DNA of 64,000 nucleotides from Candidatus Woesearchaeota archaeon (GTDB taxonomy: Archaea; Nanobdellota; Nanobdellia; Woesearchaeales; 21-14-0-10-32-9): assembly GCA_047602735.1 (NCBI GenBank), contig JBLKOK010000002.1, positions 112,483 to 176,482 on the forward strand. The letters run 5' to 3'. The notes beneath the pieces were generated by a model that was given only the letters and a program-made list of their open reading frames with translations, had not been told where the DNA came from and did no database searches. The translations under genes were made by a program, and so were the position numbers. Positions 9,112 to 44,531 of the stretch are shown piece by piece (the first letter of the stretch is position 1; each line of letters begins with the position of its first letter).

Positions 9112-11667
9112 TTATGTTAAAGTCGGTATTCTTGTTTCTAAATTATCTGCATTAGCAGCCAGTACTTCGTATCTGTTTATTACGCTTTGTGCTGCTTCTT
9201 CTCTTGTTATTATACCATCATTGTTTCTATCAAGCCCTCTATTTTGTTGATATGCAATAAGAGGATTTTCTCTATCACAAGCACCTGTTCCGCTGCCGTC
9301 ATTTGTAAACATTATACCTTCTGAATGAACTATAGATTGAGGACAAAGAACAGCAGCGTATGCTTTATCTAGTGTATCTAATTCGCCATAAGTTATTATT
9401 CTTCTCCTAAAATATTCTTCTACGTAATCTAATTGTTCTAATCTGGTCATTTGGGCTAGTTCTTCTACTGTAGTTCCAAGCCATTGCGCAGTGCCGTTCA
9501 TAAATTGAATTAAACCTGTTGCTCCACTAACAGGATTTCTTGTGTCTGGTCTAAATTGTCCTCCTGTTTCAAAGTCCATTATTGCAAGCAGGTGCATTGG
9601 ATCCATGTTTAGTCTCATTGCTATTTCCTCTGTTTTTATGATAAAGCTTTGAGCAGATCCGCTTGTCGGGTCAAATTCTTCTTCTATATCATCAGTTTCT
9701 TCTTCTTGCTCTTGTTCAAGTTCAGGGATAGTAGGAGGTATAATTTCTGAGATTTCTTCTTGTCCAGGTATTTGTATTCCTAAGATATCTTCAAATATTG
9801 ATATAGATGTTCCGTCATAGTATAGTTCTATTGCAAAATTTAAATCAGTTTGCTTATCACAAACAAAGTGATTTATTTGAGGTGCAGTACATGTGTCTAT
9901 CGGGGAGTCTTCGTTGTCTAAATCAAGTAACCAACTAGGATTTAGTAATGAGTCTTTTATTTGAGATGTTGATTTTCCTGTTGCAAACGATACAATATCG
10001 AAATTATCAGATAATAATATGTTTGTTACTAACATGGACGGATTTAAAAATCCAGTTGCTACATCTACAAACGGGATGTTACTAAACAAGTCCACTCCTA
10101 ATACATCATCTACAAATCCTATTATTCCTTGCGAACCAAATATTTCTTGTTCTAGTTCATCTACGAATTCATTTGCTATTTCTTCTAGTTCTTCTTTTGT
10201 TATTATTTTTATTTTTTTCTCAGAGGTTTCTTCTTCAATTAGTAAGTTGAATTCTTCTTCAAATACGAATTCAAATTCTTTTTCTCCATCTAGTTCTAGT
10301 AAGAAATTAACTCTGTATCTGTTATTGTTTATATAAAATTGGTCGTTTATTTGTGATATGTTTGTTTCTTGGTCTACGTTTATGTTACAATAACAATCTT
10401 TTCTTGTTGCTATGCAATCTCTTATGTTTGCTAGTAATTGTAATTCTTGAGTTTCTAGTAAGTAATATATCTTTGATGAGTCTAAGTCTTTTAGTTTTTG
10501 ATATAATAATTGTTCTCCCCTGTTCTTATGTGTTCTTATGTCGTTTAGTTGATCTATTATTTCTTTTTGTTCTTGTATTGGTTCTCTATTTTTGAATCTT
10601 CCTTCACTTACTACGTGTGTATTTGTTTGCATCCAGTTTAGTTGATCTGCACTCCAAAGCCACTCTGATTCAAACTTATAATATATCGGTGTGCTGCCAG
10701 AGTATTCAATTTCAAATATTTCTCTTGGTTGTTTATGTAAACATAATTCATAATCATTTTGTGATAATACTGATTCTAAACTAGTAGTTATAGGGCTATT
10801 TGTTTGTTGTACTAATATTCTTGCTCTCTCAAATGTTTGAAGAGGCGAATCAAAAGTTATTGATTTTTGATATTTCGCTGAGTGGTCTCCTATGCTTGGA
10901 GTTACTCCCTGCGTTAATTGTTCAGCTATTGAAAGGTCTTCATCTAATAAAAATACTAACGGGGTTTGTCCACTTATTCCAGCCGCCATCGCTTCGTCTC
11001 TTGCAGCTCTTCCAACTCCGGCGTATATATCTATTTTTGGTTGACCTCTAAACGCAGAGCCTGTATCCTCTGCTTTGTATATTCCGTTCCAAGGATGATT
11101 TTGAGAGAAATATAAGTAAACATAGGTTTCATAAGGTATGTGACCTGGAGTGTTTGGTATTGGATTTACTGCTATCGTCCATTTTGGTCTAGGATCTGTT
11201 TGTCTACTTGTTATACCACTTGTAAATTTTGTATCAAGTGCTACGCTATCTGCTTGTGTTGGTCTTAGTTGACTGTGGTAAAAAACCGAGTTTTCACAAA
11301 CTCCACTTCCTTGACATTTTATTTCTTCATATACTCCTCTATGTTCTTCAGGTATGCAGCACCATCCTGCTCTTCTGTCTTCAACGCAGCTTCTGACATT
11401 GTAATTATCTCCGTAGTAGTCTACTATTTGTCTTGTAGTTTCAAAGCAGCTTCCTTTTTCTGGACTACACCAACTAGTTTTGTCTTCGCAGGAAGGAGTA
11501 TAGTAAACTGTTGTTTCAACATTTGTATACGTTGGAGATAAGGAATTTATGTTTCTCTCTATTCTTTGTTCTGCTATTCTTATTTGAACTTCATCATCAC
11601 TATATACTACAGGAGATATTATTATAACTGAGAGGATTATTGTTAGTAAAATTATTTTTTTTATCAT
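9112..11667 (-). CDS. Secreted multidomain murein hydrolase: 3D/DPBB (MltA-like) domain + long linker + lysozyme-like lytic transglycosylase domain + EF-hand loop
   Basis: Signal peptide MIKKIILLTIILSVIIISPVVYS; the ATG at 11667 forms an ATGA overlap with the amidase stop. 3D-domain motif, nt about 11017-11517: TVYYTP..IAVNP..GIYKAEDTGSAFRGQPKIDIYAG. Lysozyme-like domain, nt about 9115-9645: MDFETGGQF..SGATGLIQFMNGTAQWLG..QLDYVEEYF. Canonical EF-hand loop DRNNDGIITREE at 9196-9231. Confidence 0.75.
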   Translation of the reverse strand: MIKKIILLTIILSVIIISPVVYSDDEVQIRIAEQRIERNINSLSPTYTNVETTVYYTPSCEDKTSWCSPEKGSCFETTRQIVDYYGDNYNVRSCVEDRRAGWCCIPEEHRGVYEEIKCQGSGVCENSVFYHSQLRPTQADSVALDTKFTSGITSRQTDPRPKWTIAVNPIPNTPGHIPYETYVYLYFSQNHPWNGIYKAEDTGSAFRGQPKIDIYAGVGRAARDEAMAAGISGQTPLVFLLDEDLSIAEQLTQGVTPSIGDHSAKYQKSITFDSPLQTFERARILVQQTNSPITTSLESVLSQNDYELCLHKQPREIFEIEYSGSTPIYYKFESEWLWSADQLNWMQTNTHVVSEGRFKNREPIQEQKEIIDQLNDIRTHKNRGEQLLYQKLKDLDSSKIYYLLETQELQLLANIRDCIATRKDCYCNINVDQETNISQINDQFYINNNRYRVNFLLELDGEKEFEFVFEEEFNLLIEEETSEKKIKIITKEELEEIANEFVDELEQEIFGSQGIIGFVDDVLGVDLFSNIPFVDVATGFLNPSMLVTNILLSDNFDIVSFATGKSTSQIKDSLLNPSWLLDLDNEDSPIDTCTAPQINHFVCDKQTDLNFAIELYYDGTSISIFEDILGIQIPGQEEISEIIPPTIPELEQEQEEETDDIEEEFDPTSGSAQSFIIKTEEIAMRLNMDPMHLLAIMDFETGGQFRPDTRNPVSGATGLIQFMNGTAQWLGTTVEELAQMTRLEQLDYVEEYFRRRIITYGELDTLDKAYAAVLCPQSIVHSEGIMFTNDGSGTGACDRENPLIAYQQNRGLDRNNDGIITREEAAQSVINRYEVLAANADNLETRIPTLT

Positions 11668-12779
11668 GCTAACGGAATCCTCCTTTGTAGTCCACTCATA
11701 ACTTCGTCCCAAGGAAACGCAGGTCCCGGATCTGGTTTATCAGTTGTTCTTTCATCATGTCCAACTATGTGTTCTCTACTTAAAGGTATAGATGGGTGTC
11801 TTGACATTATTTCTGATATTAGTTGAATTGTTGCATCAATTTGTTCTTGTGTATAAGGCTCCCAACACAATTTTCTAGATTCTCTAACATGTGATAATTT
11901 TTCAGCTTCAGGACAAGTTTGTTCTGTTCCCCACCCCATATTAACTAAAGATATTCCAATAGAATTAGGATTCATATTAGTACATATTATAGGAGGATTT
12001 TTTCCTACACATCCTGCATGCAGAGCCATTCTATGTTCTTCTACGAATTGAAAAATAGTTCCATCTTTATCAACTATGTAATGATAAGAAAAACCTTGAT
12101 CATATAGATAATTAAACGGACTTTCAACATTTCTGGATCCTGTATAATGTATAACTATTGAATCCACGACGTTAGTTCCTCTGTTTCTATGTGCAAGTCC
12201 TGGTCTAAATATATAATTATTTTGAGTTTCTCTATAAAATTCTGTTCTTGGTATAGGTGTGTGAACAACCCCATAATAATCCACCGTATCTGTTTTTATA
12301 GGCGCAGTTATTTCTTGATCTAATTCTATTTCTATATTAAATTCTTCGTCTACTTCTACTATTACGTCTTTTTGTGCTAAGTTAACAGGATCATATCTTT
12401 GAAGCTCAGTTGATACCCCTATAGTTACAATCTCAGAATAAGTTTCTCTGTAATCTGGAAAACAATCTTCTTTTATTATTGGAACTGCTAAATTCTCGCA
12501 TTCTTCTCCAAAGATTTGTCCTTCAAATTCAGCAATGTTAAATCCTCTTCTTTCAACTAGTTCTTGTTCTGCGACCGGTAAGGTTTGTTCTACAGTCATA
12601 TCCGTAAATACTTTTGCTGCTTGTACTTGTTCTTGTGTTGCTATTGCTTTTACTGTTGATTGTCCAACTAATTCTACATCAGGTAAGTTCATATTAATTA
12701 TTACTATTACAGCTCCAATCGAGATTAAGAGTGCTAGTGCAAAAAATCCAAATTCTATTTTTTGTGCTTTTTTATTCAT
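11664..12779 (-). CDS. N-acetylmuramoyl-L-alanine amidase (Amidase_2/PGRP fold) with a class III (prepilin-like) N-terminus
   Basis: N-terminus MNKKAQKIEFGFFALALLISIGAVIVII. The C-terminal domain (nt about 11700-12182) has VDSIVIHYTGS, ALHAG, NSIGISLVN and HIVGHDE..KPDPGPAFPW, the zinc-amidase signature of the T7-lysozyme/AmiD family. Confidence 0.8.
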   Translation of the reverse strand: MNKKAQKIEFGFFALALLISIGAVIVIINMNLPDVELVGQSTVKAIATQEQVQAAKVFTDMTVEQTLPVAEQELVERRGFNIAEFEGQIFGEECENLAVPIIKEDCFPDYRETYSEIVTIGVSTELQRYDPVNLAQKDVIVEVDEEFNIEIELDQEITAPIKTDTVDYYGVVHTPIPRTEFYRETQNNYIFRPGLAHRNRGTNVVDSIVIHYTGSRNVESPFNYLYDQGFSYHYIVDKDGTIFQFVEEHRMALHAGCVGKNPPIICTNMNPNSIGISLVNMGWGTEQTCPEAEKLSHVRESRKLCWEPYTQEQIDATIQLISEIMSRHPSIPLSREHIVGHDERTTDKPDPGPAFPWDEVMSGLQRRIPLA

Positions 12780-13243
12780 CTTCTTAGTGGTTTTAAATCA
12801 AAGTCCTCTTCTTTTAGTATTTTTATTTTTACTCTAAGATCTGTTCCTCTTGGGTTTGGAACTAGTAAGTCTGGAAGTATTACATCTAAATTTCTAAGAG
12901 CTCTCGAATCTACATTCGTATGTCCGTTAATATATATGTACCAGGTTGTTCCAGGATTATTTTCTGTTAGTACCTTGTTTGCGTTTTCTATTGCTCTTTG
13001 TACTCCGTGAGTGTTGTAATCATCTAGCATTTGTTGATATATTTGTTTGTCTTCGTATTGTTGTGTTAGTACTGTTCTCGTTTGATATTTTGTTTCAAGT
13101 AGCGCTCTGTGAGTGTTAAATTCTTGTTCTTTTTTATCTCCGTGACTAGAAACTATGAAGCTTAATATAAATCCAAGTATTATGATAAGTCCAATAAATA
13201 TAAATCCTGCCATAAAATCTATGGCTATTGCTCTTTTGTTCAT
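12776..13243 (-). CDS. Type IV pilin-like protein (class III signal peptide), function unknown
   Basis: 155 aa, N-terminus MNKRAIAIDFMAGFIFIGLIIILGFIL. ATGA overlaps on both sides. Confidence 0.6.
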   Translation of the reverse strand: MNKRAIAIDFMAGFIFIGLIIILGFILSFIVSSHGDKKEQEFNTHRALLETKYQTRTVLTQQYEDKQIYQQMLDDYNTHGVQRAIENANKVLTENNPGTTWYIYINGHTNVDSRALRNLDVILPDLLVPNPRGTDLRVKIKILKEEDFDLKPLRR

Positions 13244-13704
13244 CTTAAATGGGTTATCCTCATCACTGTTGGTCTTTGTTCATGTACATTTACTGGTACA
13301 AGATTTACTTCTATTACTTGTCTTTGTCTTAGTTGATTTACGTTATCTGTTCTAAATATCTTTGTTTCATTTTCTAAGTCTATTAGTATTTCAACTCCTC
13401 TTTCTTGTGCTGTTAGTAAAGGAAGGCATGCTCTAAATCTTTCTTCTGCTAATTTATTTGGATCTATTGTTCCAGCTATAACTCTTCCCGCGTCGTTTTG
13501 GTATGCAAAACAATTTTCTGAGTTTAAAAGCCTGTTTTGATATATCTGAGTTTCTAAGTCTGGAAATATTCCTGCAGCAGAATCTTCTATTGCGTTGCTT
13601 ATGTTTGCTAAGAAAAAGAAATATATCATTAAGAAGGGTACTATTATAATTATAAAAAATGCTATGTGATCTAAGAGTCCTATGCTAAATCCTTTTTTGT
13701 TCAT
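13240..13704 (-). CDS. Type IV pilin-like protein (class III signal peptide), function unknown
   Basis: 154 aa, N-terminus MNKKGFSIGLLDHIAFFIIIIVPFLMIYFFF. 4-nt overlaps on both sides. Confidence 0.6.
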   Translation of the reverse strand: MNKKGFSIGLLDHIAFFIIIIVPFLMIYFFFLANISNAIEDSAAGIFPDLETQIYQNRLLNSENCFAYQNDAGRVIAGTIDPNKLAEERFRACLPLLTAQERGVEILIDLENETKIFRTDNVNQLRQRQVIEVNLVPVNVHEQRPTVMRITHLR

Positions 13705-14450
13705 GGTAACATTCCTCTAATCGCATTTATTATTGGTTCTGGGTCATCTTCTTTTACCATAACTCTTAGATTTCTTTGATCTGTTGGTATTAGTTCAAAT
13801 TCTTCTCCTTGTTCTATTATATTACATGCTAGTCTTCTGTGTCTTAGTGATGAGTCTGAATTAAAGTATTCTACTGAATTAACATCTCCTTTTACTACTT
13901 GTATCTCTATTAGTCTATCTTCTGAATCAGTTATTGATATATGCCTTGTAGATTCAGCTAATTCTTGTACTGCGCTTGCTATTTCTGGCAGATCTATTGA
14001 AGATATTCTTGGTCTTAAAAAAACTGTGTTTTCTGTGTATCTTAAATCGCATCCTTCGGTTATTTCTTCAAAGAATAAAAGATTTCCTTGTTTTCTTATA
14101 GGTATGCTTTTTCTATTTACAACATTTGCTTCTAGGGTTTCTACTCCCCCCATTCTAAGGTATCTGTATGTGGATGAGCCTGTGTTTCCATAAACTGTTA
14201 CTATTGATTCTCTTATTGTTATTCTTAGCTCATCTGATCTTGGTACATATACTATGTCTACGTCTCCTGGCATTCCTACCACGGTTGCAAGTGCTAGTCC
14301 TAGGTCTCTTGCTACTACTCTTTCAAGTGTGTTTTCTTCTAGTTGAGATACGACGTTCCAGGTTCCTAGCGCTATTACTAGTCCTATGATTAATCCAGAA
14401 CCTACTAATAATAATTGAAAACTACTATCTTCACCCATTTTTTTTAGCAA
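13701..14450 (-). CDS. Probable pilin-like / N-terminally anchored secreted protein
   Basis: 249 aa. N-terminus M(L)KKMGEDSSFQLLLVGSGLIIGLVIALG from the TTG at 14450. An alternative ATG at 14438 would remove the basic leader. Confidence 0.5.
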   Translation of the reverse strand: MLKKMGEDSSFQLLLVGSGLIIGLVIALGTWNVVSQLEENTLERVVARDLGLALATVVGMPGDVDIVYVPRSDELRITIRESIVTVYGNTGSSTYRYLRMGGVETLEANVVNRKSIPIRKQGNLLFFEEITEGCDLRYTENTVFLRPRISSIDLPEIASAVQELAESTRHISITDSEDRLIEIQVVKGDVNSVEYFNSDSSLRHRRLACNIIEQGEEFELIPTDQRNLRVMVKEDDPEPIINAIRGMLP

Positions 14451-15196
14451 CTACCTTTAAAACATAGCTGTATTACGTTTGGGTCTTGTACCTTTTTAAC
14501 TTTTACGCTTACAGGTCCGTCTATGATTAAGCTTTGATAACCAGATATTATAGGAATTATGCTTGCTCCAAGTTCCATTGTGTTTTGAACAAAAGATACA
14601 TGCACAGTATCTGATGATTGTCTATTGCTTCTTAAAAGTATTGCGCTGTTAATCCAATAATGATCTTCCCTGTTACTAAAAAGGTTATTATTAGGATCTG
14701 GATCCTCAAATATTTCCGACATAGATACTCTTAAAGGAACTGAATACTCTACATCTTGACAAATAAGATTTGAACATCTTATTTCACCTATATTATTTGG
14801 AGGAAATGCTCCCGATGGGTCAAATCCCGTACAAAGACACGTACAAGTAGTTAGTTGTCCACATTCACTAGGTCTTTGCATTATGTTTCCTCTAAGCCAC
14901 GTATTTCCAGATTCATAACCTCCAGATATACTATATGAAGGATTTTCATATTTAAAATCAGCCATAGCATTAAAAGTTATTAGCGCTGTGTTTTGCGGTA
15001 TTTCAAATACTTGTTCTTGTTCTTCTCCTACTTCAAGTTTTGCTACTTCTTCTAAGAACGTGTTATATTCTTGCAATAAAACATTATCTGAATTATCTAA
15101 TAGGTTAGATACGAAGTTAAAAGTCAATATTACACAAGCTATAAAGATTATTAATCCCATACCTTGTGTTAATAGTGTACTTGATCCTTTCTTCAT
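14444..15196 (-). CDS. Type IV pilin-like protein with a Cys-rich globular domain
   Basis: 250 aa, N-terminus MKKGSSTLLTQGMGLIIFIACVILTF. Cys cluster ECGQLTTCTCLCTG..IRCSNLICQD. Confidence 0.6.
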   Translation of the reverse strand: MKKGSSTLLTQGMGLIIFIACVILTFNFVSNLLDNSDNVLLQEYNTFLEEVAKLEVGEEQEQVFEIPQNTALITFNAMADFKYENPSYSISGGYESGNTWLRGNIMQRPSECGQLTTCTCLCTGFDPSGAFPPNNIGEIRCSNLICQDVEYSVPLRVSMSEIFEDPDPNNNLFSNREDHYWINSAILLRSNRQSSDTVHVSFVQNTMELGASIIPIISGYQSLIIDGPVSVKVKKVQDPNVIQLCFKGSC

Positions 15197-15200
15197 TTTT

Positions 15201-15560
15201 TTATGTTCTTGATGCTAGGAATTGTATACATTGAGTTCTTGTATAATAGCATGCGTCTTGATCTCTATCATACTTAAATCCAAATTGGTTTTCACATGGA
15301 GCTGCTTCGAGATTTGCTCTACAATAAACAGTTCCATCTATTTGTACTCGTGTATTATCATCACTACATGGACAAGGATTGTCTCCTTCTACTCCAGCCC
15401 CTATGTTTTGGAGCCATTTATCTGCGATGACGCCTATGTCTTCTATTCCTTGGTCTGATCTTTGGTATAATTGCCAAGCTATAAGTAGTAAAAGTAATGT
15501 GATAACTATAGCTATAACTGTTCCCCACGTACTTGTTTGTCCTTTTTTGTTTTTCATCAT
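15201..15560 (-). CDS. Small type IV pilin-like protein with a 6-Cys domain
   Basis: Start reassigned to the ATG at 15560, giving MMKNKKGQTSTWGTVIAIVITLLLLLIAW. The track start at 15614 overlaps the upstream gene. The C-terminal part has six Cys (PCPC..YC..PC..AC..QC). Confidence 0.6.
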   Translation of the reverse strand: MMKNKKGQTSTWGTVIAIVITLLLLLIAWQLYQRSDQGIEDIGVIADKWLQNIGAGVEGDNPCPCSDDNTRVQIDGTVYCRANLEAAPCENQFGFKYDRDQDACYYTRTQCIQFLASRT

Positions 15561-15576
15561 TTTAATTTTTTTTACC

Positions 15577-16392
15577 TCAACTAATACATTTAAAATCATC
15601 ATATAATCTTTCAAGTCTTAATGGAGGAGATCTTGCTCCATCAACACAGTTTGCTGTAAGCATACCATCGCTTGTTTGACATATTGATCTTCCTAATCCA
15701 AACAAACCTGTTCTTGGAGCTACAGGTATTACACATAATGTGTCATCTACTTTTAAGAAATATAAATGATTGTTTTCTTCTATGTTTCTAATTCTTATTG
15801 GATCTTGTTGAGTTGATGAAGTCATAACGAAATGAATATTGTTATCTGACGATCTTAGTCTCCTCCTATTATCATTTACTGAGAATTCTATTGTTGAAAC
15901 TGTTTGAGGAGAAGTCACGCTTTGGAAACTGTTAACCTGTGTGTTTCCTTGTATTATATCTCTTAGTTGTTCTACTTGTTCTATTTCGTGAAGATTACAA
16001 AGTCTTACTCCTCTACCAATTTCAGATAAAGTTAGTGCTGCTGAGCCTGACTTTGGAAGTACTTCTATCCTGGTTGTTTGACCTTGTGATGTAAATCTTA
16101 TGTTGTTTGATTCAAACATCTGTTTTGTAAACATATCTATTCTATGAAGACAATTTTGATTAGATTGCATTATTTCTCCAAGTTCTGAAGCTATTTTTGA
16201 AGATTGTTGAGCTAATGTTATTGTTTGAGTTATTGTTGAGTCTGACCTACTGTCTCTGTCTTCTAAGTTAAATATCCTATCTATTTGATGTGTTGTAAAA
16301 TCAAATAATGATCCTGTGTAAAAGTGTATGAATAATAGTAGTGCTAGTAATAATAATATTATTTTTGTAAGCATACTCATTGATTGAGTCAT
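15577..16392 (-). CDS. N-terminally anchored extracytoplasmic protein, function unknown
   Basis: The ATG at 16392 (MTQSMSMLTKIILLLLALLLFIHFY) forms an ATGA overlap with the upstream micro-ORF. Hydrophobic anchor, but no clear [KR][GA] prepilin site. Confidence 0.55.
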   Translation of the reverse strand: MTQSMSMLTKIILLLLALLLFIHFYTGSLFDFTTHQIDRIFNLEDRDSRSDSTITQTITLAQQSSKIASELGEIMQSNQNCLHRIDMFTKQMFESNNIRFTSQGQTTRIEVLPKSGSAALTLSEIGRGVRLCNLHEIEQVEQLRDIIQGNTQVNSFQSVTSPQTVSTIEFSVNDNRRRLRSSDNNIHFVMTSSTQQDPIRIRNIEENNHLYFLKVDDTLCVIPVAPRTGLFGLGRSICQTSDGMLTANCVDGARSPPLRLERLYDDFKCIS

Positions 16393-16529
16393 AATAACAA
16401 CCCCCAAGTAGATAATATGTTACCATGTATTTGTCTTATCACTATTGCTATAACTATTAAGAATATTACTAATAGAAGTATCTTTAGAAGTCGTGATGTT
16501 AACATTGCGTTTTTTATTTTTTTTATCAT
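16389..16529 (-). CDS. 46-aa single-pass membrane micro-protein (below the ORF-track cut-off)
   Basis: Own translation: MIKKIKNAMLTSRLLKILLLVIFLIVIAIVIRQIHGNILSTWGLLL. Its stop TGA overlaps the next ATG (ATGA). Same strand as the cluster. Confidence 0.45.
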   Translation of the reverse strand: MIKKIKNAMLTSRLLKILLLVIFLIVIAIVIRQIHGNILSTWGLLL

Positions 16530-35388: not shown

Positions 35389-38300
35389 TTACCACCACCC
35401 ATAGCTCCATCCATCTACAGTACATTCCCAATCACCATACTCCGGATAGGCAAGTAAATGAGGAGGGATATTTATATCACCCCAAGAATCTACATTTTCT
35501 AAGAAAGTCTTAGTTTCAGATATCATATTACACTCGCCTGTAACACTATTGCATCTTTGAGAAGGGTCTGGATATTGGCAAGTTACATTGTTTAAATCAA
35601 CCCAATACTCTCCAACAGTAAGAAAATCTCCCCAATAAGGATCAAACTCTAATTCCTCACCATATTCAGTCCAAGGAGCAAAACCTACTTCCTCAAACCA
35701 ACACCAGTCATCTGCAAAGATCTCTGTATAATGTAAATCAGGTGTGCATTGTTCTGTTAAATTAACATAACATTGCCCATAACTCCAACTCGGCCCAATA
35801 ACTTCTTCAAAACAATAACCACCATTTGATTCATATTCGTCTTTTGTACAAGGCATTGTTTCATTAAAATTATAATTACAACTACTATAAGTATCACAAC
35901 CATAAAAGCAGAATTCTCCTATCCACGTTGCATCATATTGATCTTGACAAGCTGTTCTCTCAGGTATACAAGTACAATCCGAAAACCTTGTATCTCTACA
36001 CTGACCCTCTCCATCGCAAGCAGCATTATTACACAATAAATGAGCATCACTAATATTATATCCTATTCGATCTCTTGTGCTTGGAGCGGGCGTGTTTTTT
36101 ATACAAAAAGAAATTCCAGTAACATCTACTATTTTTCCTGTAAATAAATCCTCATGATAAAACCAATCATTCTCTTCTACTATGTCCCTCGTATCTACAT
36201 CAAACATTTGTGTGTAATTAAAATTTGTGCAGCTTAGTTCATCATGTGAAAATTCTTCTATTAGTCCAGAACATTGATATCTTTGATTTTCAGAAAACGG
36301 ACAAACCTGGTGAGATGTTAATTCATACGTTATGTCTCCTCCACATATATTTCCTCTTGATCCATCACAATTTCTTTTAAAATCTAACCTAAAAACATTA
36401 TTCAACTGATATGGTTTTAAGTCATTAATATCTGCTATTTCAGTAGGAGTTACGCTAAAATCATATACGTGGTCTCTTATTCCTTGTTCTTCTATTTCTG
36501 TGAGGTTTTGTACTCTTTCAAATAATTTATCTGGAGTACCATAAGATATTTCATCAAAACAAACAAAACTCCTACTTATTCTGTTAAAGTCCTCATCACA
36601 ACATGTGTGGTTTGCAAGGAAAGGATCTGTGTCGTTGTTATATGGAAATGCAGGTACTGAACTTCTGTGAGGTAGGCAAACTTTTACTTCAAAATCATAT
36701 GAGTTTGTAACTTCAACTGGTGGAACTCCAGGCATACCTGGATTAAAGGTTAATTTAAGTTCCATGTTATAATTTCCAGTTCGATTAATAATTTGATTTC
36801 TTATATTTAAAATGTTGTAGCTAAAAGGTAATGTGTGAGTTAAATCAGTAGTAGTATATTCTTTTATTAACTCCAAATTTCTTGTTAGTCTCCACCAAAA
36901 ATTGTCTAATGAACCAGGTATCATTACTGGAAGAGTTGTTTTATTTCCGTCAATTAATATCGGGTTTTCTATACTCATATCATCAAAAGAATAATTATAT
37001 ACGTTAGACACTTCTACATTTGCTTTTGGGAGGTCTATGACTAGTATTTTTATGTCTTGGAAGTCTATTCTTCCAGCAAGATCTTTTACTATTGCTCTAA
37101 GTTCGTGATATCCTGCGTCTTGTATTGTCGGTGTGTAGTTTGCAGATTGTTTTGTTTGATCAAACAAAATCGAGTTTGTCCATAATCTTCCAGTAAAAGG
37201 TTGGGTTTCCATACAACTTTTTATTTGATCTAAAGTTGATAAAGGAGGAGAACAACCAGATCTTGTCAGGTTTAAAATATTTGTTTCGTTTTCTTTCCAT
37301 CTAGAGTAGCTATATTCTACTGGTCTGTTGTCAGGGTCTACTCCGAAAGGAGTTATTGTTATTGTTTGGTTTTCAAAGACTATTATGTTTAGTTCTGGGT
37401 GAGCACTTGGATTCATATAATCTAGTACTGGGTTTCTGTTTTGTATCGCGGTGTAATAAGTAAAGTTTTGTCCAAATATTTGGCTTCTTGTATCTGTTAA
37501 TTTTATTAATCGGTCCCATTTATAGGCTTTGTTTGTATCCGTAAAATTTATTATTTCTAATTGGAATCCTTCTAAAAATAGGTTTCTTCCAATGTTTGGA
37601 ATTGTTAAAGTGTTGTAATCTCTTAGTATGTTAAAAAAAGGATTTATTGTTTCTTTTCTTAAAAGTTCATATAGATATAGTTGTATTTCTTGTAATCTCA
37701 CATTTGAATAGTAAGAAAAATTATAACTTGTAATTACAGGTATGTGTCCTCTTAGTTGTACTCTAAATGGTAGTTGTAAGTTTGTCATAAATCCTTCTAC
37801 TCCATAAATTATGTGGACGTCTCTAGGTTCGTTTTCTAAGAATGTTACGTTGTGTCCGTCTATTTCTTGGAATATACTAAAATTTATACAATCTATTGTT
37901 TTGTTAAGTATTCTTCTAGAAAGTAAATATTCTGTTGATAAATTCTTATCATAAAAAATGCTACGGGATAGTATACCTGAGCACCCAACAAAAACTCTTG
38001 GTGAATCATCTATTAGTATAGGGTCTGTGTTTATTGAATTATTAAAACAAAGTCTTGGAAAAACATTCACTCCCAAAAATCCTCCCCCAGTATAATTAAA
38101 TGTTGGAGAAGAACAATAATTTGCATAATTCATTCTTGTAAAAAAAGAAAGAGGCGTTCTTGGAAGAGGGTAGTGAGGTGCATTTATTTGAATACTTGGA
38201 CAAACATTTGGAAAATGTGATTGTGGCGGCGAACTGTATAGTCTTAGTACTCCGTAAGATACATTAAATTCTTCTGTGCTTTCATTATAAGGTATGTGTG

Positions 38301-38583
38301 TTATTCCTTCAGCGCTTGCAGCGTAGGGTCCTTGTTGTGATTGAAAGAATGTTCCTCCTTGTCTTCCCATCTCTATTAGTGATTCTTGTACTGCTTGTTC
38401 TAAGCAAAGGTTAACGTAATAGTTTATTGGTCCTGATTCTAAGTATTCTTGAACTGCTTCTTGTGCTTGTTGTTGTAGTTCTGACATAGAAACAGAGTTT
38501 ACTAGCATTAACATAAATGAAACTACTATTAGCATAACTAATCCTAGTAATGCAAATATTGCTACTTGACCTCTTTTTTTCAT
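35389..38583 (-). CDS. Giant (1064 aa) protein with a prepilin-like N-terminus and a large Cys-rich ectodomain
   Basis: N-terminus MKKRGQVAIFALLGLVMLIVVSFMLMLV (KRG-Q + helix). Includes a cadherin/He_PIG-like motif ITITPFGVDPDNRPVEYSYS. The C-terminal third is very rich in Cys, Trp and Tyr. Confidence 0.75.
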   Translation of the reverse strand: MKKRGQVAIFALLGLVMLIVVSFMLMLVNSVSMSELQQQAQEAVQEYLESGPINYYVNLCLEQAVQESLIEMGRQGGTFFQSQQGPYAASAEGITHIPYNESTEEFNVSYGVLRLYSSPPQSHFPNVCPSIQINAPHYPLPRTPLSFFTRMNYANYCSSPTFNYTGGGFLGVNVFPRLCFNNSINTDPILIDDSPRVFVGCSGILSRSIFYDKNLSTEYLLSRRILNKTIDCINFSIFQEIDGHNVTFLENEPRDVHIIYGVEGFMTNLQLPFRVQLRGHIPVITSYNFSYYSNVRLQEIQLYLYELLRKETINPFFNILRDYNTLTIPNIGRNLFLEGFQLEIINFTDTNKAYKWDRLIKLTDTRSQIFGQNFTYYTAIQNRNPVLDYMNPSAHPELNIIVFENQTITITPFGVDPDNRPVEYSYSRWKENETNILNLTRSGCSPPLSTLDQIKSCMETQPFTGRLWTNSILFDQTKQSANYTPTIQDAGYHELRAIVKDLAGRIDFQDIKILVIDLPKANVEVSNVYNYSFDDMSIENPILIDGNKTTLPVMIPGSLDNFWWRLTRNLELIKEYTTTDLTHTLPFSYNILNIRNQIINRTGNYNMELKLTFNPGMPGVPPVEVTNSYDFEVKVCLPHRSSVPAFPYNNDTDPFLANHTCCDEDFNRISRSFVCFDEISYGTPDKLFERVQNLTEIEEQGIRDHVYDFSVTPTEIADINDLKPYQLNNVFRLDFKRNCDGSRGNICGGDITYELTSHQVCPFSENQRYQCSGLIEEFSHDELSCTNFNYTQMFDVDTRDIVEENDWFYHEDLFTGKIVDVTGISFCIKNTPAPSTRDRIGYNISDAHLLCNNAACDGEGQCRDTRFSDCTCIPERTACQDQYDATWIGEFCFYGCDTYSSCNYNFNETMPCTKDEYESNGGYCFEEVIGPSWSYGQCYVNLTEQCTPDLHYTEIFADDWCWFEEVGFAPWTEYGEELEFDPYWGDFLTVGEYWVDLNNVTCQYPDPSQRCNSVTGECNMISETKTFLENVDSWGDINIPPHLLAYPEYGDWECTVDGWSYGWW

Positions 38584-38612: not shown

Positions 38613-39455
38613 TTATTTTGCTATTAATGATGCAAAGCTCACAACGTCTTTTTCATCGTTTGTTATGTCTGCTAAAGTGTAGTATTGTTCTAGTTCGTAG
38701 TTTGATTTTGTTAAAAGCATTAGCATTACTATTCCAAGTACGTTGTTTGTGTTCATTCCGTGTTCTTCAACGAATTCTAAGTATTTTTTTGGATTGTTTT
38801 TTTTAATTACTTCTATTGCGTCTCTGTCTAGTTCGTATACTTTTTTGTTTATGTTTGTTGAAAAAGGAAGGTATCTGTGTATTGCTCCATGACTTGTTAG
38901 GTTTGTTGGAACTATTATGACTGCTGTTTTGTTTTGGTCTAGTAGTGCTTCTTTTATGTCTGTTGATAGTTCTCTTAGGTTTAAAGAAGCGTTTAGTAGT
39001 ATTGGTAGTATTTGTGGTTGTTTGTTTTTGTATATGAATTGTAATAGTGGCAGTTGGCTTTCTATGTATTCGTCATCGTCAAATAAAGCGTTGTTTTCTT
39101 TTATATGTCCTTTTTCGAGTATGCTTCTTACAAGTTTTTGATCTACTCTAACTATTCCGTAAGGTGTTTCCCATGGTTCTTGTGTTATTGCAGGTTCTTC
39201 TTCGCTTTGTCCAAGTATTATTATTACGTCTGGTTTTTTGCTTTCTGCTAATACTTTGTATGCCCACGCGCTGCTCGGGGCTGATTCTTTATATCTAAAT
39301 CTTGGTACTATTAGTCCGTTTATTTTATGTTTCGGATCAAGGTCTGCAGGTAGGTCTCCTGGTCCTTTTTTTGATTGGAATGCTTGTTCTAGTTCTTGGT
39401 TTATTAGTGTTGGTGCTGATGCGTAGTACATACCTGTTAGTTTTGGTTTCCTCAT
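38613..39455 (-). CDS. Memo-like (AmmeMemoRadiSam system protein B family) protein, apparently with substituted metal ligands
   Basis: 280 aa, no signal peptide. Colinear with the Memo pattern, but PHAGY reads PRFRY, GPxH reads GQSE, and EHSxExQLPFL reads DEYIESQLPLL. SHG is retained in NLTSHG. Confidence 0.55.
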   Translation of the reverse strand: MRKPKLTGMYYASAPTLINQELEQAFQSKKGPGDLPADLDPKHKINGLIVPRFRYKESAPSSAWAYKVLAESKKPDVIIILGQSEEEPAITQEPWETPYGIVRVDQKLVRSILEKGHIKENNALFDDDEYIESQLPLLQFIYKNKQPQILPILLNASLNLRELSTDIKEALLDQNKTAVIIVPTNLTSHGAIHRYLPFSTNINKKVYELDRDAIEVIKKNNPKKYLEFVEEHGMNTNNVLGIVMLMLLTKSNYELEQYYTLADITNDEKDVVSFASLIAK

Positions 39456-39509
39456 AGTAATTAGTTTTAAGAAATGATTAGTATATAATATTTTTGGATA
39501 AAAAAAAGT

Positions 39510-42500
39510 TTAACTGTGAACTAAAAAGTTATCAAAGTAGGCATAAACTTCTTTAGTAGGAGACCACTCCGGACTTCCACCCCCAAAAAACGTGTTAAAA
39601 TAAAATAAATTAATTAAACTACGATCAGTGTTTTCAGCTCTAAATCTCACATTATTTACTGAGGCAACAAGATTGTTATCTATTTTTAAATCCACCTCTC
39701 CATTTGATTGTCCATTATCATTAACTTTTACTCTTAAAGAAATTTCGTGCCACCTTCCTTTTTGAAATTGGAAGTTAGTTGCACGTTCAGACTTCCCACA
39801 TTGACCTCCTTGTCTATCATTATCATAATAATAAATTTCAGGTACTCCGTTAGCTCTCCACATTACTCTTGCGCTCCAACCGTGATCTACAGTGTTTTGT
39901 GTACAGCCCCAAATAGGATGTCTTGATGTCAAACCAGGAAGTTTACCTCCTCTTACAAACTCAAAGTCTTCATCAAAGAATACATGATATTTTAACGTAT
40001 ATTCTTGTGAAGGTTCTAATCTTACAGAATCAAATATCCTAGGAGATCCTATACGCGTAGGCCTATATCTAACTTGTAAGTAATTATTATCATCATTATT
40101 TTTTACAGTTAAGAAATTACTTCCAAAAAAATTTTGATTTACAGTTGCACTTTCAAAACCTTCAAAATACACTGTGTTTGGGTTAGTCAAAGTTCCAGGA
40201 TTATTCGGAACTGATACTGGTTGTGAAGTCGGTGCAAATAAATTAGTAGATTCTGAAATAAATTCATCACAAGAATAAATTCTTGAATTCATGAAAGAAT
40301 CCCCTTGTGGTTGTGATTGTAATCTTAGTATTCCTGTTGTTCTTTTCCAGTTTGAAAAGCTTCCAGGTATAACAATATCTACTTCATCGTCTGATTTTAC
40401 TTCAACAAAGCATGCATCGAGTTCATCATCAGATAAAACACCAAACAAATTTAATAATTCTATTGTCCCTAATCTAGGATTTAGTCCTTTTAATGTTATC
40501 CTTGTTGCTCTTTGTTCGTCTCTTCCACTAACAACCCCTGTAACATTTTTACCTTCTATAGTTGTTATATAAAAGTCAGTCACATACCTTGAAGCAACTC
40601 CAAAATCAGGTAAGACAGTTGCTGAAGGTAAGTTTATTGTAAATAAGTTTGTTAGCCAATTCCTAAACCTTTGCCAAACAGTTACATCAACTAAGCCAGC
40701 AACAGTTATTTGTTCTGTTGATAAAAGTATTATTCTAAGATCTTGAGAACCATACATACGCATATAATTATTATTAAAACCAGTACAACTACCATAAATA
40801 GCACCCTGCACAGGATTATTACAAATAATATCTATATCATCAAATTCTGGGAATGGTTCAAAGAAAGGTTTTATTATAGCATCAGAATAGTCATCTAAAT
40901 TTAGAGGTAAGGCTACTTCGAGGCCAACATACGTTTCTTCTGGCTCTCCAGATGTTTCTTTTCTTAATATACATGCAGATAGCTGTGTTTGTGCAAAATT
41001 ACTAGTAAACCCGTCTATATTCGTAGGTAAATAGTTTTTCAAATCATTTATGTTTCCACAATAAAGAGTGTAATCTTGATTACCTGCTAATGTTAATAGA
41101 TGTGAAGCAATTATGAGCATTCTGTTACTATCTTGTAATCTTACCCATCCATCGTCAGGCATACAAACGTGTCCTGCCATTGTTTCAAACAACTCTTTTT
41201 CTTCAAAGAACTCCTCATAAGTTAAATAATTTTCACCCTGATTATCTGGTCCGAAGTTCATCCTCATCTTAATAGATGCATTATCTGCAGATATGTTACA
41301 GCCATACATTTTTCCGTTACTAAATAATAATCTTCTTGTTATATTTGTAGGATCTACTAATCCTATTTCGTTTTTTACAACCTGGTGATTTCTAACAGAA
41401 GTACTATTCCAACACATACCAATGGAGTCTATGAAGAATTCGCCTGTTCCTTCAGGGTTGTTTCCACAACAAACGTTACCCGTCCACCTATTTGTTAATT
41501 GAGCATTACATGCAACTTCATAAGGAATCTTATCTTCATCATTAACATCTTCTCCCCAGAACCCTTTAGGAGAGTCTCCTCCATCAAGATTATCTATCCA
41601 TATCCTGTGGCGCCCAGTACAATAACGTAACTCTGAGTTAATAGTTGACTCCGGGTTTGGTACAAGATAAAAATTAGTAGCCACCACATTAGCACGTACA
41701 TCATCCACATTATTTTTTATTCTAACACGAGTTACATTTGTTAAATCATCATCTATAGAGGATAAATTAACTCTAACTTCAGCAGAAATACCAGAATTTA
41801 TTAACCTTACATAATACTCTGTTAATGATTGGTTTAAAACTTCCACCCCACTATTTTCTATTATTATGCTTAGGTTTTTAGGGATGTTTGATAATAAGAC
41901 GAAGCGTAACTCGCTAAAGTCAGACCAATTACTTAAAATTATGTCTTGAGGAAGTAAAAAAGACAGAACATTTCCTCCCTCAATTGGTCGATTAGTAAGG
42001 TCACTTAAATTTTCAAATCTTACTAAATCATATAGTGTTCCACCAGTAGTTGTATACACCTTTGTTAGAGAATGAAGACCGAGATCTTTTAAAGGATTAG
42101 CTGGCGCAGTAAATGAGGATTGACGACATCCAGGTCCAGCACAACATTCTTTTATATAGTTGTTTCCTTGTTGTTGGTAACAAATAAAACTTTCATTAAT
42201 CAGTGCATAAACAGGAATGTCAGCTCTTGGACTTGGTTCACCACCAATACAACAATTAGACTCGCCTCCTACTTCTACTGTATTTCCAGGACAAATATGA
42301 GTCTCAGAATTAAATTCTGTTCCTTGAATTTGTTGACAAGTAAGCTCTGATAAATCTCTGCATCTAGCAGCTGCCCCAATACAACACATCTCCCCTCTAG
42401 TGTTGTTAAAAAAAGCCCCATCAGTACAATATTGATTTTCTTCACATACATTATAATCTTCATTAAAACTAGATTGCGCTTCGGTTGTTTGAATAGCCTG

Positions 42501-44531
42501 ACAGGTTTTAGTTATATCAAAACCCTCTCCTCTACACAAGGAATTATCTCTAAAATCAGGATTTATACACCAACCAGGAATTGAACCATCATCTTCGCTT
42601 CGACATATAGGTTCATCTCTCATAGCAGGACTTTCACAAAAAGTAGTAGTAGGATTAGAAAGATCAAAATATTGTTCAAGATTCACATACTGATTAGCAT
42701 GTAATATACGACAGTTATTACTACAATCTTCTACAAAATTCCCGGAATCATATGTGGGCTGATTAATACCAAAACAAAAAGCGCTAAATTCCTGTTCCTC
42801 ACATTCACCTTCAGTATTGCAACTACCTACGTTTCCAAAAGAATACTGTAAAACAGATAAACATAAAGGATCATTAGGATCTATGAATGAGCCTGGAGGA
42901 CTTGGAAAAGTTTCGTTTTCAGCTAAAGAATAACTAGGATTTAATACTTGTAACCCTGAAGCATTACACATAAACCATTGTTCTCCCGAACTTACAAAAT
43001 GAGTAGCATTACTTGTTTGACTAATTGGATTAGTAGTACTATCCTCAGGTATAAATGCAGACATAATATAATAAGGTAATAAATGAGCAGGTCTCCAAAC
43101 GTATGTTGATGTTTCTGCATATCTTATAGCATCTCCATCAGCTCGGTTTTTCAAACAAACATAATAATTATCCTCCGAATCATTAGCGATTAAACCAAGA
43201 TTTCCCCCATCCGCCTCAGTACCAATACTCTTTATCCCTAAGTATCCACAACAACCAAGTCCTTCTTTATAATGTGTTCCTTGAACTTCGAATCCGTATC
43301 CATTAATACATAAACCATCTTCTGTGGGATCTGTAGGCACAGGCATAATTCCAAAAGTATTAGCCGTTTTAAACACGTCCCCTATATTAATAGGTTGCGA
43401 ATTTTGAAATAAATCTAATCTCAATCTTTTTTGAAAAGTAGTAATACCACTCTTATATTCAATCTTAAACAAATACCAACCTTCACGTACATTAAAATTC
43501 TCAGAAATTTGATTATTACCAGATACTTTATCAAGAATAGCAGTCTGTTGTACCCATTGCCCCTCTTGATTTACTATTATTGGATGTAAATGCATATGCA
43601 CCGTATCACCGGGTCTAATATAAGGCCTTATTGATAAGTTAGTAAATGATTCATTTACATATAAATAAGTATAAAATAAAATTATACCTCTTTCGTCAGA
43701 AGACATAAGATCACTAGAAGTACTATCCATAAATTTATTAGAACTAAAATCTACTTTAAAATAATGATCATCTATGTCTTTAGAAAAGCCTTGATCAGTG
43801 GATAAAGCTTTTATATAGTTATCTCCACACTTAAAATCGCTATCACACGAATTAAGAGAAAATTCTTTTGGGCTTAAAGATTGACCCTTGGTTGTATTAT
43901 AATCACAAAGACCCCCTTTATCAGTTCTAACAACCTTTTCACCACATAAACAAAAATCAGAAATTAATTCTAATTTATTTATTTCAAAAGGACAGTTAGG
44001 TGGAGTAGCTACTCTAAACGCTTCATTAGGATAATTATTTGTTCCTCTAGATCTATAAAACTCTGTAGCAAATATAGGATTTGTAAATTGAATCGTTTCA
44101 GATTTCCACTTATTCGCAATAGCTCTATCAATTAACCTGAACTCTCCATCCCCAGCACTAACTTGAAACCAAATATCAGGAGTGCTACCAGTATCATCTA
44201 ATACACTTAATACATAATCACCACTAATCATCGGATTACCTGCAGAACTCGTATCTTCTACCCATGCCTCACAAATATTTTTTGGAACTGTAAATGTTTG
44301 AGAAAATCTCCGTCTACTTCTTCCAGTACCAAACGAACGCCAAAAGTTACAAGCCACGTAATCTCCAACAGGATTTACATTCCATTTATTTTCATTATAT
44401 GAATTAGTTATAGCTTGTGCTCTTTGTTCATATATCGGGATGTCATCATCTGCTGCGACAGGAGTTGAGAAAGCGATAAAACTAATACTTAGTATTAATC
44501 CTAGTAAAAGAGTTATTGACTTTATGCGCAT
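39510..44531 (-). CDS. Giant (1673 aa) secreted Cys-rich protein with a C-terminal concanavalin-like / polysaccharide-lyase (PL14-like) domain
   Basis: Signal peptide MRIKSITLLLGLILSISFIAFSTPVAADDD. The last 219 aa (nt 39513-40169) carry GGKLPGL..GWSARVMWR..G.WHEISLRVKVN..NGEVDLKIDN..FNTFFGGG..YFDNFLV, which I recognise as the Pfam Polysacc_lyase (PF14099) pattern. Confidence 0.75.
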   Translation of the reverse strand: MRIKSITLLLGLILSISFIAFSTPVAADDDIPIYEQRAQAITNSYNENKWNVNPVGDYVACNFWRSFGTGRSRRRFSQTFTVPKNICEAWVEDTSSAGNPMISGDYVLSVLDDTGSTPDIWFQVSAGDGEFRLIDRAIANKWKSETIQFTNPIFATEFYRSRGTNNYPNEAFRVATPPNCPFEINKLELISDFCLCGEKVVRTDKGGLCDYNTTKGQSLSPKEFSLNSCDSDFKCGDNYIKALSTDQGFSKDIDDHYFKVDFSSNKFMDSTSSDLMSSDERGIILFYTYLYVNESFTNLSIRPYIRPGDTVHMHLHPIIVNQEGQWVQQTAILDKVSGNNQISENFNVREGWYLFKIEYKSGITTFQKRLRLDLFQNSQPINIGDVFKTANTFGIMPVPTDPTEDGLCINGYGFEVQGTHYKEGLGCCGYLGIKSIGTEADGGNLGLIANDSEDNYYVCLKNRADGDAIRYAETSTYVWRPAHLLPYYIMSAFIPEDSTTNPISQTSNATHFVSSGEQWFMCNASGLQVLNPSYSLAENETFPSPPGSFIDPNDPLCLSVLQYSFGNVGSCNTEGECEEQEFSAFCFGINQPTYDSGNFVEDCSNNCRILHANQYVNLEQYFDLSNPTTTFCESPAMRDEPICRSEDDGSIPGWCINPDFRDNSLCRGEGFDITKTCQAIQTTEAQSSFNEDYNVCEENQYCTDGAFFNNTRGEMCCIGAAARCRDLSELTCQQIQGTEFNSETHICPGNTVEVGGESNCCIGGEPSPRADIPVYALINESFICYQQQGNNYIKECCAGPGCRQSSFTAPANPLKDLGLHSLTKVYTTTGGTLYDLVRFENLSDLTNRPIEGGNVLSFLLPQDIILSNWSDFSELRFVLLSNIPKNLSIIIENSGVEVLNQSLTEYYVRLINSGISAEVRVNLSSIDDDLTNVTRVRIKNNVDDVRANVVATNFYLVPNPESTINSELRYCTGRHRIWIDNLDGGDSPKGFWGEDVNDEDKIPYEVACNAQLTNRWTGNVCCGNNPEGTGEFFIDSIGMCWNSTSVRNHQVVKNEIGLVDPTNITRRLLFSNGKMYGCNISADNASIKMRMNFGPDNQGENYLTYEEFFEEKELFETMAGHVCMPDDGWVRLQDSNRMLIIASHLLTLAGNQDYTLYCGNINDLKNYLPTNIDGFTSNFAQTQLSACILRKETSGEPEETYVGLEVALPLNLDDYSDAIIKPFFEPFPEFDDIDIICNNPVQGAIYGSCTGFNNNYMRMYGSQDLRIILLSTEQITVAGLVDVTVWQRFRNWLTNLFTINLPSATVLPDFGVASRYVTDFYITTIEGKNVTGVVSGRDEQRATRITLKGLNPRLGTIELLNLFGVLSDDELDACFVEVKSDDEVDIVIPGSFSNWKRTTGILRLQSQPQGDSFMNSRIYSCDEFISESTNLFAPTSQPVSVPNNPGTLTNPNTVYFEGFESATVNQNFFGSNFLTVKNNDDNNYLQVRYRPTRIGSPRIFDSVRLEPSQEYTLKYHVFFDEDFEFVRGGKLPGLTSRHPIWGCTQNTVDHGWSARVMWRANGVPEIYYYDNDRQGGQCGKSERATNFQFQKGRWHEISLRVKVNDNGQSNGEVDLKIDNNLVASVNNVRFRAENTDRSLINLFYFNTFFGGGSPEWSPTKEVYAYFDNFLVHS

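Follow-up and report, generated by a model that had tools for sequence, protein, structure and literature searches.

A block of co-directional genes at positions 9112–44531 of a 64,000-nucleotide (nt) stretch of Candidatus Woesearchaeota archaeon DNA (contig JBLKOK010000002.1; the whole stretch is referred to as the window) encodes numerous pilin-like proteins, giant adhesin-like proteins and murein hydrolases, and comparison with related sequences indicates that this block recurs across the lineage and is not a one-off. Its gene content, motifs, conservation and enzyme families are observed directly. We lean towards the explanation that the block provides the structural genes for a surface apparatus resembling a type IV filament, whose adhesins and modular pilin-hydrolase subunits would act against bacterial envelopes and whose assembly machinery would be encoded elsewhere. 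Woesearchaeota are among the most widespread uncultured archaea; for their contact with partner cells the block is a concrete and testable candidate, physically linking pilin-like subunits, giant adhesin-like proteins and enzymes that appear sensible only against bacterial walls.

Pilin-like leaders and murein hydrolases in a conserved gene order

All sizeable open reading frames (ORFs) of the block lie on the minus strand, to which the coordinates of block features given below refer. The 24 consecutive minus-strand ORFs claimed in an original prediction, made by a model from the sequence alone, were recovered as 22 ORFs of at least 85 amino acids (aa) plus two mini-ORFs. Leaders were scored with a FlaFind-style regular expression (M followed by as many as 9 aa, [KR][GA] and, within 8 aa, a hydrophobic window of 17 aa). 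Inside the block 14 of the 22 ORFs were positive, whereas outside it 1 of 35 was (Fisher p = 5e-7). Four further leaders were borderline, namely those of g18 (KKMG), mini-1 (KKA/S), mini-2 (KNA/M) and g14 (LG/K; a slash marks the point of putative cleavage), and orthologues of mini-2 and g14 have clean KKG/Q leaders. With 14 positives and four borderline cases, the earlier count of "at least 15" or "sixteen or so" prepilin-like leaders is fair. Leaders of the four giants g01, g04, g05 and g22 (1673, 1166, 3026 and 851 aa), read directly, have S, L, S and I, respectively, after the basic run and never G or A, so that these Sec-type proteins serve as an internal control. Across 80 related loci the leader pattern was present in 618 of 1,497 cluster-strand ORFs versus 21 of 1,809 opposite-strand ORFs, and the +1 residue was Q in 48% of 636 leaders. 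The pilin-like leaders are genuine and much commoner than by chance. Signal anchors would not be expected to have G, A or S immediately behind the basic run, nor such a frequency of Q at +1. A hydropathy scan found an N-terminal hydrophobic segment in every block product but the Memo-like g02, and none of the products is polytopic.

Conservation was followed from g07 (21219–22142), a 307-aa pilin-like protein (MNKKA/QVEVSFNWIFVLIAG...) that represents the signature family of the cluster. A word-indexed search gave 48 g07 homologues, all from Woesearchaeota where named, and an exhaustive profile search gave 2,068 representative clusters at 50% identity, 1,027 of them at E <= 1e-30. Genomes of at least 185 GTDB species, with Woesearchaeota or Nanoarchaeota in their titles, contain relatives of g07. 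The DPANN host proposed originally is thus borne out as a member of the Woesearchaeota by all homologues and by an archaeal RNase P RNA in the window; it may conceivably be episymbiotic. Among the GTDB loci L014–L082, many third-party metagenome-assembled genomes with the cluster are titled "uncultured Methanosarcinales archaeon", a label that looks wrong or like a placeholder.

Synteny was assessed from gene tables and from our own ORF and BLAST maps of the related loci, each covering up to 10 kb around a match. Gene order is preserved at 22–55% identity. It starts with a g03-like class-III protein, one or two giant Sec proteins and the quartet g06-g07-g08-g09, continues with two to four small (80–100 aa) Cys pilin-like paralogues and a larger Cys-rich pilin-like protein, and ends with a mini-peptide, a TPM protein, a second mini-peptide, five to seven more pilin-like genes and a murein hydrolase. 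Lack of conservation in relatives had been named beforehand as grounds for abandoning the idea of a dedicated apparatus; the order is kept. Neighbouring genes are shared as well, since an rpp30-like gene lies upstream of the block in three loci (L059, positions 2273–2884, L028 and L049) and an RPA-like gene downstream in five (L056, positions 20662–21002, L036, L054, L021 and L078), as in the window, and these common neighbours suggest an old, vertically inherited position. Loci L059 and L056, titled as different isolates, display the upstream and downstream block boundary, respectively, and neither contains an assembly ATPase. Literature searches found no paper describing the cluster, its order, pilin-type leaders on hydrolases or the mini-peptides; already published are murein transglycosylases of Woesearchaeota and Pacearchaeota, the idea of an attack on bacteria, DPANN pilin islands and a 51-family module of unknown function.

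Two enzyme genes form the distal end of the block. The first, g21 (11664–12779), encodes a 371-aa modular protein composed of a leader and helix (MNKKA/QKIEFGFF...), a spacer of approximately 170 aa and an N-acetylmuramoyl-L-alanine amidase domain, which sequence comparison places in the Amidase_2 family (Pfam E 1e-28, 100.2 bits against a cut-off of 26; PDB matches AmpDh2, E 4e-15, and AmiD, E 9e-10). The second, g22 (9112–11667), encodes a Sec-signal protein with a 3D (MltA/RlpA-like) domain (Pfam E 6e-7, 30 bits against a cut-off of 23.8) followed by a C-terminal lytic-transglycosylase-like domain, for which the Pfam SLT score of 18.9 bits was under the cut-off of 21.3 and the PDB matches were 9udh, a "lytic transglycosidase" (E 4.5e-28), and the phage internal protein 9k2v (E 1e-5). 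These matches assign g22 to the 3D and lytic transglycosylase families by sequence, and 3D-domain homologues of g22 exist in Woesearchaeota.

Hydrolases also recur at this position in relatives. Of the related loci, 43 stretch 8 kb or more past g07; at least 15 of these have a murein-hydrolase ORF 6–9.5 kb downstream of g07 on the same strand, and 13 of those distal ORFs (at least 15) bear a pilin-like leader. Six enzyme families are represented there: Amidase_2 (the window, L005, L008 and L009; together with SLT in L022), glucosaminidase (with VanY in L020), VanY (eight loci by local search, and weakly L004), the PF11860 muramidase (L026) and 3D (L005, L011 and L054). Because the position keeps its function while the enzyme family is swapped between lineages, the comparison provides strong evidence that murein cleavage belongs to the function of the cluster. 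The linkage of pilin-like genes with murein hydrolases noted in the window extends to other lineages, with non-orthologous enzymes, and gives strong support to a functional connection and to bacterial walls as the target. Archaea make no murein; together with the polysaccharide lyase of family 14 (PL14) in g01, this points to the envelope of bacteria. In a published survey, a Sec or Tat signal was found in only 32% of the peptidoglycan hydrolases of archaea (PMC12352652); class-III-like leaders could account for part of the remainder, as a third export route absent from Sec/Tat counts, and export via such a leader may apply to many of the murein hydrolases in archaea that are described as "without a signal peptide".

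A proposed type IV filament and its alternatives

Among g07 family proteins, conservation is highest in the N-terminal segment: FNWIFVLIAG is invariant and, of the 34 sequences compared, at least 90% have an acidic residue at +3. A packing helix would be expected to be conserved in this way, but a plain signal anchor would not. In an AlphaFold2 (AF2) model of g07 with a predicted local distance difference test (pLDDT) score of 91.9, an N-terminal helix of 56 residues (3–58) is followed by a beta domain and then by a helical bundle. The two mini-ORFs (35 and 46 aa), whose positions are conserved, encode nothing beyond leader and helix and are candidates for headless pilins. The name "UPF0333 family" that JGI gives to the g08 orthologue also speaks for a pilin-like nature.

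A number of results weigh against a type IV filament. To our knowledge, seventeen different "pilins" far exceed the complement of any characterised filament. Only about 11 of 17 leaders fit what we take to be the strict FlaFind-type rule. The structural check proposed in the original prediction showed the long N-terminal helix of g07 but no known pilin fold: Foldseek comparison of the g07 model with the PDB found no pilin (best E 0.03, unrelated) and comparison with BFVD gave no match, whilst the g08 model, built from six homologues, was unusable at pLDDT 44. The suggestion that the leaders belong to the class III signal family PF04021 failed, as PF04021, PF07790 and other Pfam pilin models gave no hit at E <= 0.1 in any block ORF, and among 104 relatives of the small pilin-like proteins PF04021 matched none and Flp1_like only three, weakly. 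NCBIfam pilin and archaellin N-terminal hidden Markov models (HMMs) were likewise negative, with only sub-threshold UpsA matches (E 0.04–0.2) in relatives. Since membership in curated pilin families was tested and none was found, the block proteins are described here as working like type-IV-filament pilins and not as members of any such family.

The absence of assembly machinery points in the same direction. A T2SSE probe validated on PDB sequences (CpaF 1e-55, archaeal GspE 1e-34, FlaI 1e-28) found nothing in 1.36 Mb comprising the window, contig flanks and the 80 related loci, although with one randomly placed ATPase per genome only about one would be expected in that length. Pfam detected no T2SSE, T2SSF or A24 peptidase in the window and approximately 77 kb of its 83-kb contig, a Walker-A regular expression applied to the window, contig flanks and loci found no secretion ATPase, and the hydropathy scan found no platform-type polytopic membrane protein in the block. 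A PilB/FlaI-type ATPase, a PilC/FlaJ platform and a PibD/EppA peptidase were thus not found in the 64 kb, in agreement with the original statement. Their lack makes the locus less odd than originally implied, since in euryarchaea pilin loci occur separately from ATPase/tadC loci, and in nanoarchaea an ATPase occurs "without cognate pilins" (PMC4858521); because such separate loci are known, absence of machinery at the locus is not decisive. The literature on DPANN type IV pili conflicts: one groundwater study, which also counts against a filament, reports type IV pilus components as missing from DPANN genomes, whereas others report FlaI/TadC islands (PMC6393860) and type IV filament (TFF) systems 1 and 4A in DPANN.

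From these features we infer that leaders are cleaved and a filament is assembled, and also what each subunit does and what the target is. In the favoured explanation a prepilin-type (A24) peptidase would remove the short basic leader after [KR][GA] and thereby bare the hydrophobic helices. An ATPase and a platform encoded outside the block would then pull the subunits out of the membrane and stack them into a filament or short pseudopilus. The quartet g06–g09 might form an initiating, priming or tip complex, analogous to the four minor pilins and to GspH-K (PMC8179133), and by analogy with headless Epd and Flp pilins the shaft might be made of g10–g12, the mini-peptides or both. The giant g03, the TPM protein g14 and the amidase g21 would be modular pilins, carrying effector modules on a common N-terminal carrier; the Sec-exported giants g04 and g05 would serve as adhesins, and g01 (PL14 lyase) and g22 (3D and lytic transglycosylase) as secreted envelope-degrading enzymes. 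A bacterial partner or prey could thereby be gripped and its capsule and wall opened locally. A form of this scheme that we regard as rather unlikely is a filament or spike organelle for cross-domain attack or attachment, built from approximately 17 divergent pilin-like kinds, including headless peptides of 29–40 residues and defensin-sized Cys-knob subunits, with the hydrolases as integral parts and with machinery either unrecognisably divergent or unrelated to the ATPase/platform pair. Such an organelle would agree with the published report of type IV pilus components missing from DPANN and, if real, would mean that many of these archaea live on bacteria and not on other archaea.

The failure of pilin and class-III HMMs to match, the lack of ATPase, platform and peptidase in the 1.36 Mb around the cluster, the groundwater study's statement on DPANN, a number of distinct subunits too great for a simple filament and the C-terminal membrane segments of g05 and g14 would all be accommodated if the N-termini were uncleaved signal anchors. 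The products would then form a membrane-tethered envelope or "pseudo-periplasm" complex, as a cell-surface layer specific to the lineage, with hydrolases scavenging murein and polysaccharide debris and with neither filament nor type IV machinery. We consider this possible, with an appreciable though minor chance of being correct, as it does not explain why G, A or S follows the basic run and Q so often occupies +1, why Sec-type proteins of the same cluster lack the leader pattern, or why the N-terminal helix is the most conserved segment of g07; furthermore, the conserved 35–46-aa leader-plus-helix peptides would anchor nothing.

The leader evidence would serve equally for a pseudopilus of the type II secretion kind, a short piston pushing giants and hydrolases through the cell's own surface layer, so that the apparatus would serve secretion rather than adhesion or attack. 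We know of no archaeal type II secretion system, the hydrolases bear pilin-like leaders that suggest subunits rather than cargo, and the giants have normal Sec signals; this explanation therefore appears quite unlikely, even though many pilin-like genes are paired here with large secreted enzymes and a quartet with one large member recalls GspH-K (PMC8179133). An integrated virus or mobile element, with many small membrane proteins set between terminal lysins on one side and a giant with a depolymerase tail on the opposite side, is highly improbable. A PL14 lyase, an amidase and a transglycosylase domain like that of a phage internal protein are typical phage tools, the GC content of the block is slightly above that of most flanks, and toxin-antitoxin genes adjoin it; against this, Pfam found no capsid, terminase, integrase or replication genes, IMG/VR contained no g07 relatives and BFVD no fold match, the rpp30 (three loci) and RPA (five loci) neighbours are common to the window and some relatives, and order is conserved across at least 185 species genomes. 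A viral origin was rejected in view of the IMG/VR result, and the mobile-element explanation is close to refuted.

Relation to known systems

The Epd locus of Methanococcus maripaludis (system 1) resembles the block in that many class-III-signal subunits are encoded co-directionally together with adhesin-like accessories, and in that the major Epd pilin is without a globular head, comparable to mini-1 and mini-2 (preprint 10.64898/2026.04.22.720090). The Epd cluster comprises 11 genes and its pilins are headless (preprint 10.64898/2026.04.22.720090), and some Epd pilin genes stand at loci apart from the motor (PMC4858521). However, the Epd cluster includes an ATPase, a peptidase of its own and two platform genes, whereas the Woesearchaeota block was found to have no such genes, and no HMM-level similarity links Epd to the block products. 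The block, unlike Epd, combines murein hydrolases and three to four giants with approximately 17 subunits.

Bacteria have modular pilins and a four-minor-pilin tip complex (Streptococcus sanguinis PilB/PilC, GspH-K, PilY1; PMC8179133). A module on a pilin-type N-terminal carrier is paralleled here by the g21 amidase, g03 and g14; a GspK-like, much larger member is found in the quartet, where the g07 model has a helical extra domain; and a large adhesin gene likewise lies beside the four consecutive pilin-like genes. These systems nevertheless belong to another domain of life, and neither sequence nor fold matches connect them to the block. Murein-hydrolase modules are not among the architectures of PMC8179133, in the main text of which "peptidoglycan", "amidase" and "hydrolase" each occur 0 times, and the "modular pilin" idea would gain a possible enzyme-carrying class, in archaea.

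DPANN "dark matter" islands (Makarova, Wolf and Koonin 2019, Fig. 2A) contain unannotated signal-peptide proteins read as diverged pilins, and were recognised by FlaI- and TadC-like genes within them, which the Woesearchaeota block does not have; a hydrolase link, conserved order and wide distribution are not described there (PMC6393860). Large murein-lytic-transglycosylase proteins of Woesearchaeota and Pacearchaeota and a "vampiristic" hypothesis have been reported, extracellular murein-degrading enzymes being taken there to indicate bacterial hosts or prey (PMC8204110, PMC9723730, PMC12352652), but the enzymes are treated as single genes, with no mention of pili, pilins or a common cluster in the searched texts. 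Module 98 of PMC8204110, consisting of 51 lineage-specific families of unknown function, may overlap the block families. Episymbiotic Saccharibacteria of the candidate phyla radiation (CPR) are ultrasmall, host-dependent cells that find and bind their bacterial host by type IV filaments (PMC9894109, PMC11623550). Their pili are bacterial, have complete and recognisable machinery and were experimentally tested, whereas the Woesearchaeota block is interpreted from sequence. A filament encoded by the block would challenge the working rule that pili on ultrasmall cells belong to CPR bacteria and not to DPANN archaea.

Genes, transcription units and flanks of the block

The upstream end of the block is formed by g01 (39510–44531), a Sec-signal, Cys-rich giant with a C-terminal polysaccharide lyase 14 domain at aa 1507–1669. 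Membership of this domain in PL14 is indicated by Pfam PF21294 (E 3e-39, 135 bits against a cut-off of 27) and by PDB matches of the C-terminus to alginate lyases (5gmt, E 6e-15, and chlorovirus vAL-1). The next gene, g02 (38613–39455), encodes a 280-aa Memo-like protein (Pfam PF01875, E 1e-25, 90 bits) that is probably cytoplasmic, being the sole block product without an N-terminal hydrophobic segment. This signal-less Memo-like protein thus sits amid otherwise exported products, and a counterpart was not seen in related loci. BLAST matched neither g01 nor g02 to any related locus; two of these loci contain the upstream boundary but most end short of it, and both genes may be lineage-specific additions. 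The conserved core opens with g03 (35389–38583), a giant of 1064 aa with the class-III-like leader MKKRG/QVAIF..., homologues of which head the cluster in 25 loci; it is a candidate modular pilin or tip adhesin. It is followed by the Sec-signal proteins g04 (31762–35262; 5.8% Cys, adhesin-like, homologues in 31 loci) and g05 (22590–31670; homologues in 36 loci), the latter with a C-terminal membrane anchor at aa 2813–2841, a Lys-rich tail and 68 NxS/T sequons. Pfam and PDB sequence searches gave no match for g03, g04 or g05, and self-BLAST detected no internal repeats in the giants at E <= 1e-3.

The conserved quartet consists of g07 and three smaller pilin-like proteins. The 153-aa g06 (22139–22600; MMTKKA/QTQQVFIYIMV...) is its first member and has homologues in 63 loci, each time immediately upstream of g07. 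The 158-aa g08 (20733–21209; MKKA/QIQSAETIMV...) has homologues in 74 loci, one orthologue, P0053, being named "UPF0333 family" by JGI, and the 165-aa g09 (20242–20739; MVKKA/QMEMIGL...), with homologues in 32 loci, closes the quartet. Three small Cys-knob pilin-like paralogues come next, g10 (19908–20186; 92 aa, six Cys, MKKG/EISINVVVMAAIA...), g11 (19613–19897; 94 aa) and g12 (19342–19599; 85 aa), g10 being 55% identical to g12. A PDB search with g10 gave nothing meaningful, and the consensus of 104 relatives of this family has five to six near-invariant Cys. The Cys-rich heads of these relatives, approximately 45 residues long, gave sub-threshold Pfam matches to AtDEF-like in nine (best E 1.5e-4) and to beta-defensin in three, as well as to carboxypeptidase inhibitor; the defensin-like matches may reflect Cys spacing only. 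The small paralogues are followed by g13 (18180–19331), a 383-aa Cys-rich pilin-like protein (MNKKA/NTWSQVL...) with positional equivalents of 368–497 aa in L005 and L007.

Two mini-ORFs flank the TPM gene g14 (16567–18021), which encodes a 484-aa membrane protein with an extracytoplasmic TPM domain at aa 215–337 and a Gly-rich C-terminal hydrophobic region. Its assignment to the TPM family is supported by Pfam PF04536 (E 6e-11, 42.9 bits against a cut-off of 22.1), and the protein is conserved in 25 loci. On the upstream side, mini-1 (18023–18130) encodes 35 aa (MLHKKA/SIQTFVVLIVTIATILLMIYAVSKIAGII), a "headless" pilin-like peptide of leader and one helix, with equivalents of 32–38 aa at the same position in L005, L007, L008, L009 and L011. 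Directly after the TPM gene, mini-2 (16389–16529) encodes a second such peptide of 46 aa, the L005 equivalent of which is also 46 aa long (MINKTKKG/Q...), with further equivalents in L007, L008 and L011; it is a called gene in L005 and L004. In L005 the mini-ORFs lie at 13680–13787 and 15162–15302. Conservation of their position in five relatives indicates that mini-1 and mini-2 are real genes, and they may be among the shortest pilin-like peptides known.

Next is g15 (15577–16407), a 276-aa protein with an N-terminal anchor or Sec-type signal that is not class-III-like and an orthologue in L005. The remaining genes before the amidase are mostly pilin-like, comprising the 119-aa Cys-rich g16 (15201–15560; MMKNKKG/QTSTWG...), the 250-aa g17 (14444–15196; MKKG/SSTLLTQGMGLII...), the 249-aa g18 (13701–14450; MLKKMG/EDSS..., borderline and of uncertain start codon, its L007 orthologue starting MNKRG/V...), the 154-aa g19 (13240–13704; MNKKG/FSIGLL..., homologues in 15 loci) and the 155-aa g20 (12776–13243; MNKRA/IAIDF...). 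All five family assignments made originally from recognisable domains, namely PL14, Memo, TPM, Amidase_2 and 3D, agree with Pfam (135, 90, 43, 100 and 30 bits, respectively).

Genes within the block are closely spaced, with 4-nt overlaps at g06/g07, g18/g19, g19/g20, g20/g21 and g21/g22 (the g22 ATG being at 11667), 7-nt overlaps at g08/g09 and g17/g18, an 11-nt overlap at g05/g06 and other gaps mostly of 4–55 nt. A promoter-like element of approximately 58 nt (CAAAAGATTTATAAAG...AATAAAAGAGGATGCATCGA) lies about 25–80 nt 5' of the g05 and g04 start codons. The copy upstream of g04 (35303–35350) reads CAAAAGATTTATAAAG...GAGGATGCATCGA and contains the TATA-box-like TTTATAAA, and the copy upstream of g05 (31696–31743) is near-identical. 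Two exact copies of the element occur in the window, both 5' of g04/g05, against a chance expectation of none, and by its sequence it looks like a duplicated archaeal TFB-recognition element (BRE)/TATA promoter with a common 5' leader. The block is therefore probably composed of several co-regulated transcription units and is not a single operon. Apart from this element and the g10/g12 paralogy, no long DNA repeats, diversity-generating or other, were found in the block.

The GC content of the window is approximately 31%, with values of 0.31–0.36 in the block and 0.27–0.33 in most flanks. The archaeal RNase P RNA (RF00373, 116 bits) lies at 4650–4938 on the minus strand, between A-ATPase subunit genes and an ABC transporter, and other genes of the window and contig encode A/V-type ATPase subunits, an RPA-like OB-fold protein, GyrA and pentose-phosphate enzymes. 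The rpp30-like gene (RNase P protein subunit p30) at 46394–46900 scored 22.4 bits with Pfam, under the cut-off of 35. Toxin-antitoxin-like pairs adjoin the block and recur elsewhere in the window (44624–46401, 54458–55113 and 63158–64000). They comprise PIN genes with a ribbon-helix-helix (RHH) partner at 44879–45265 and 54697–55113, HEPN with a minimal nucleotidyltransferase at 45713–46401, and HEPN with NTP_transf_2 at the window end.

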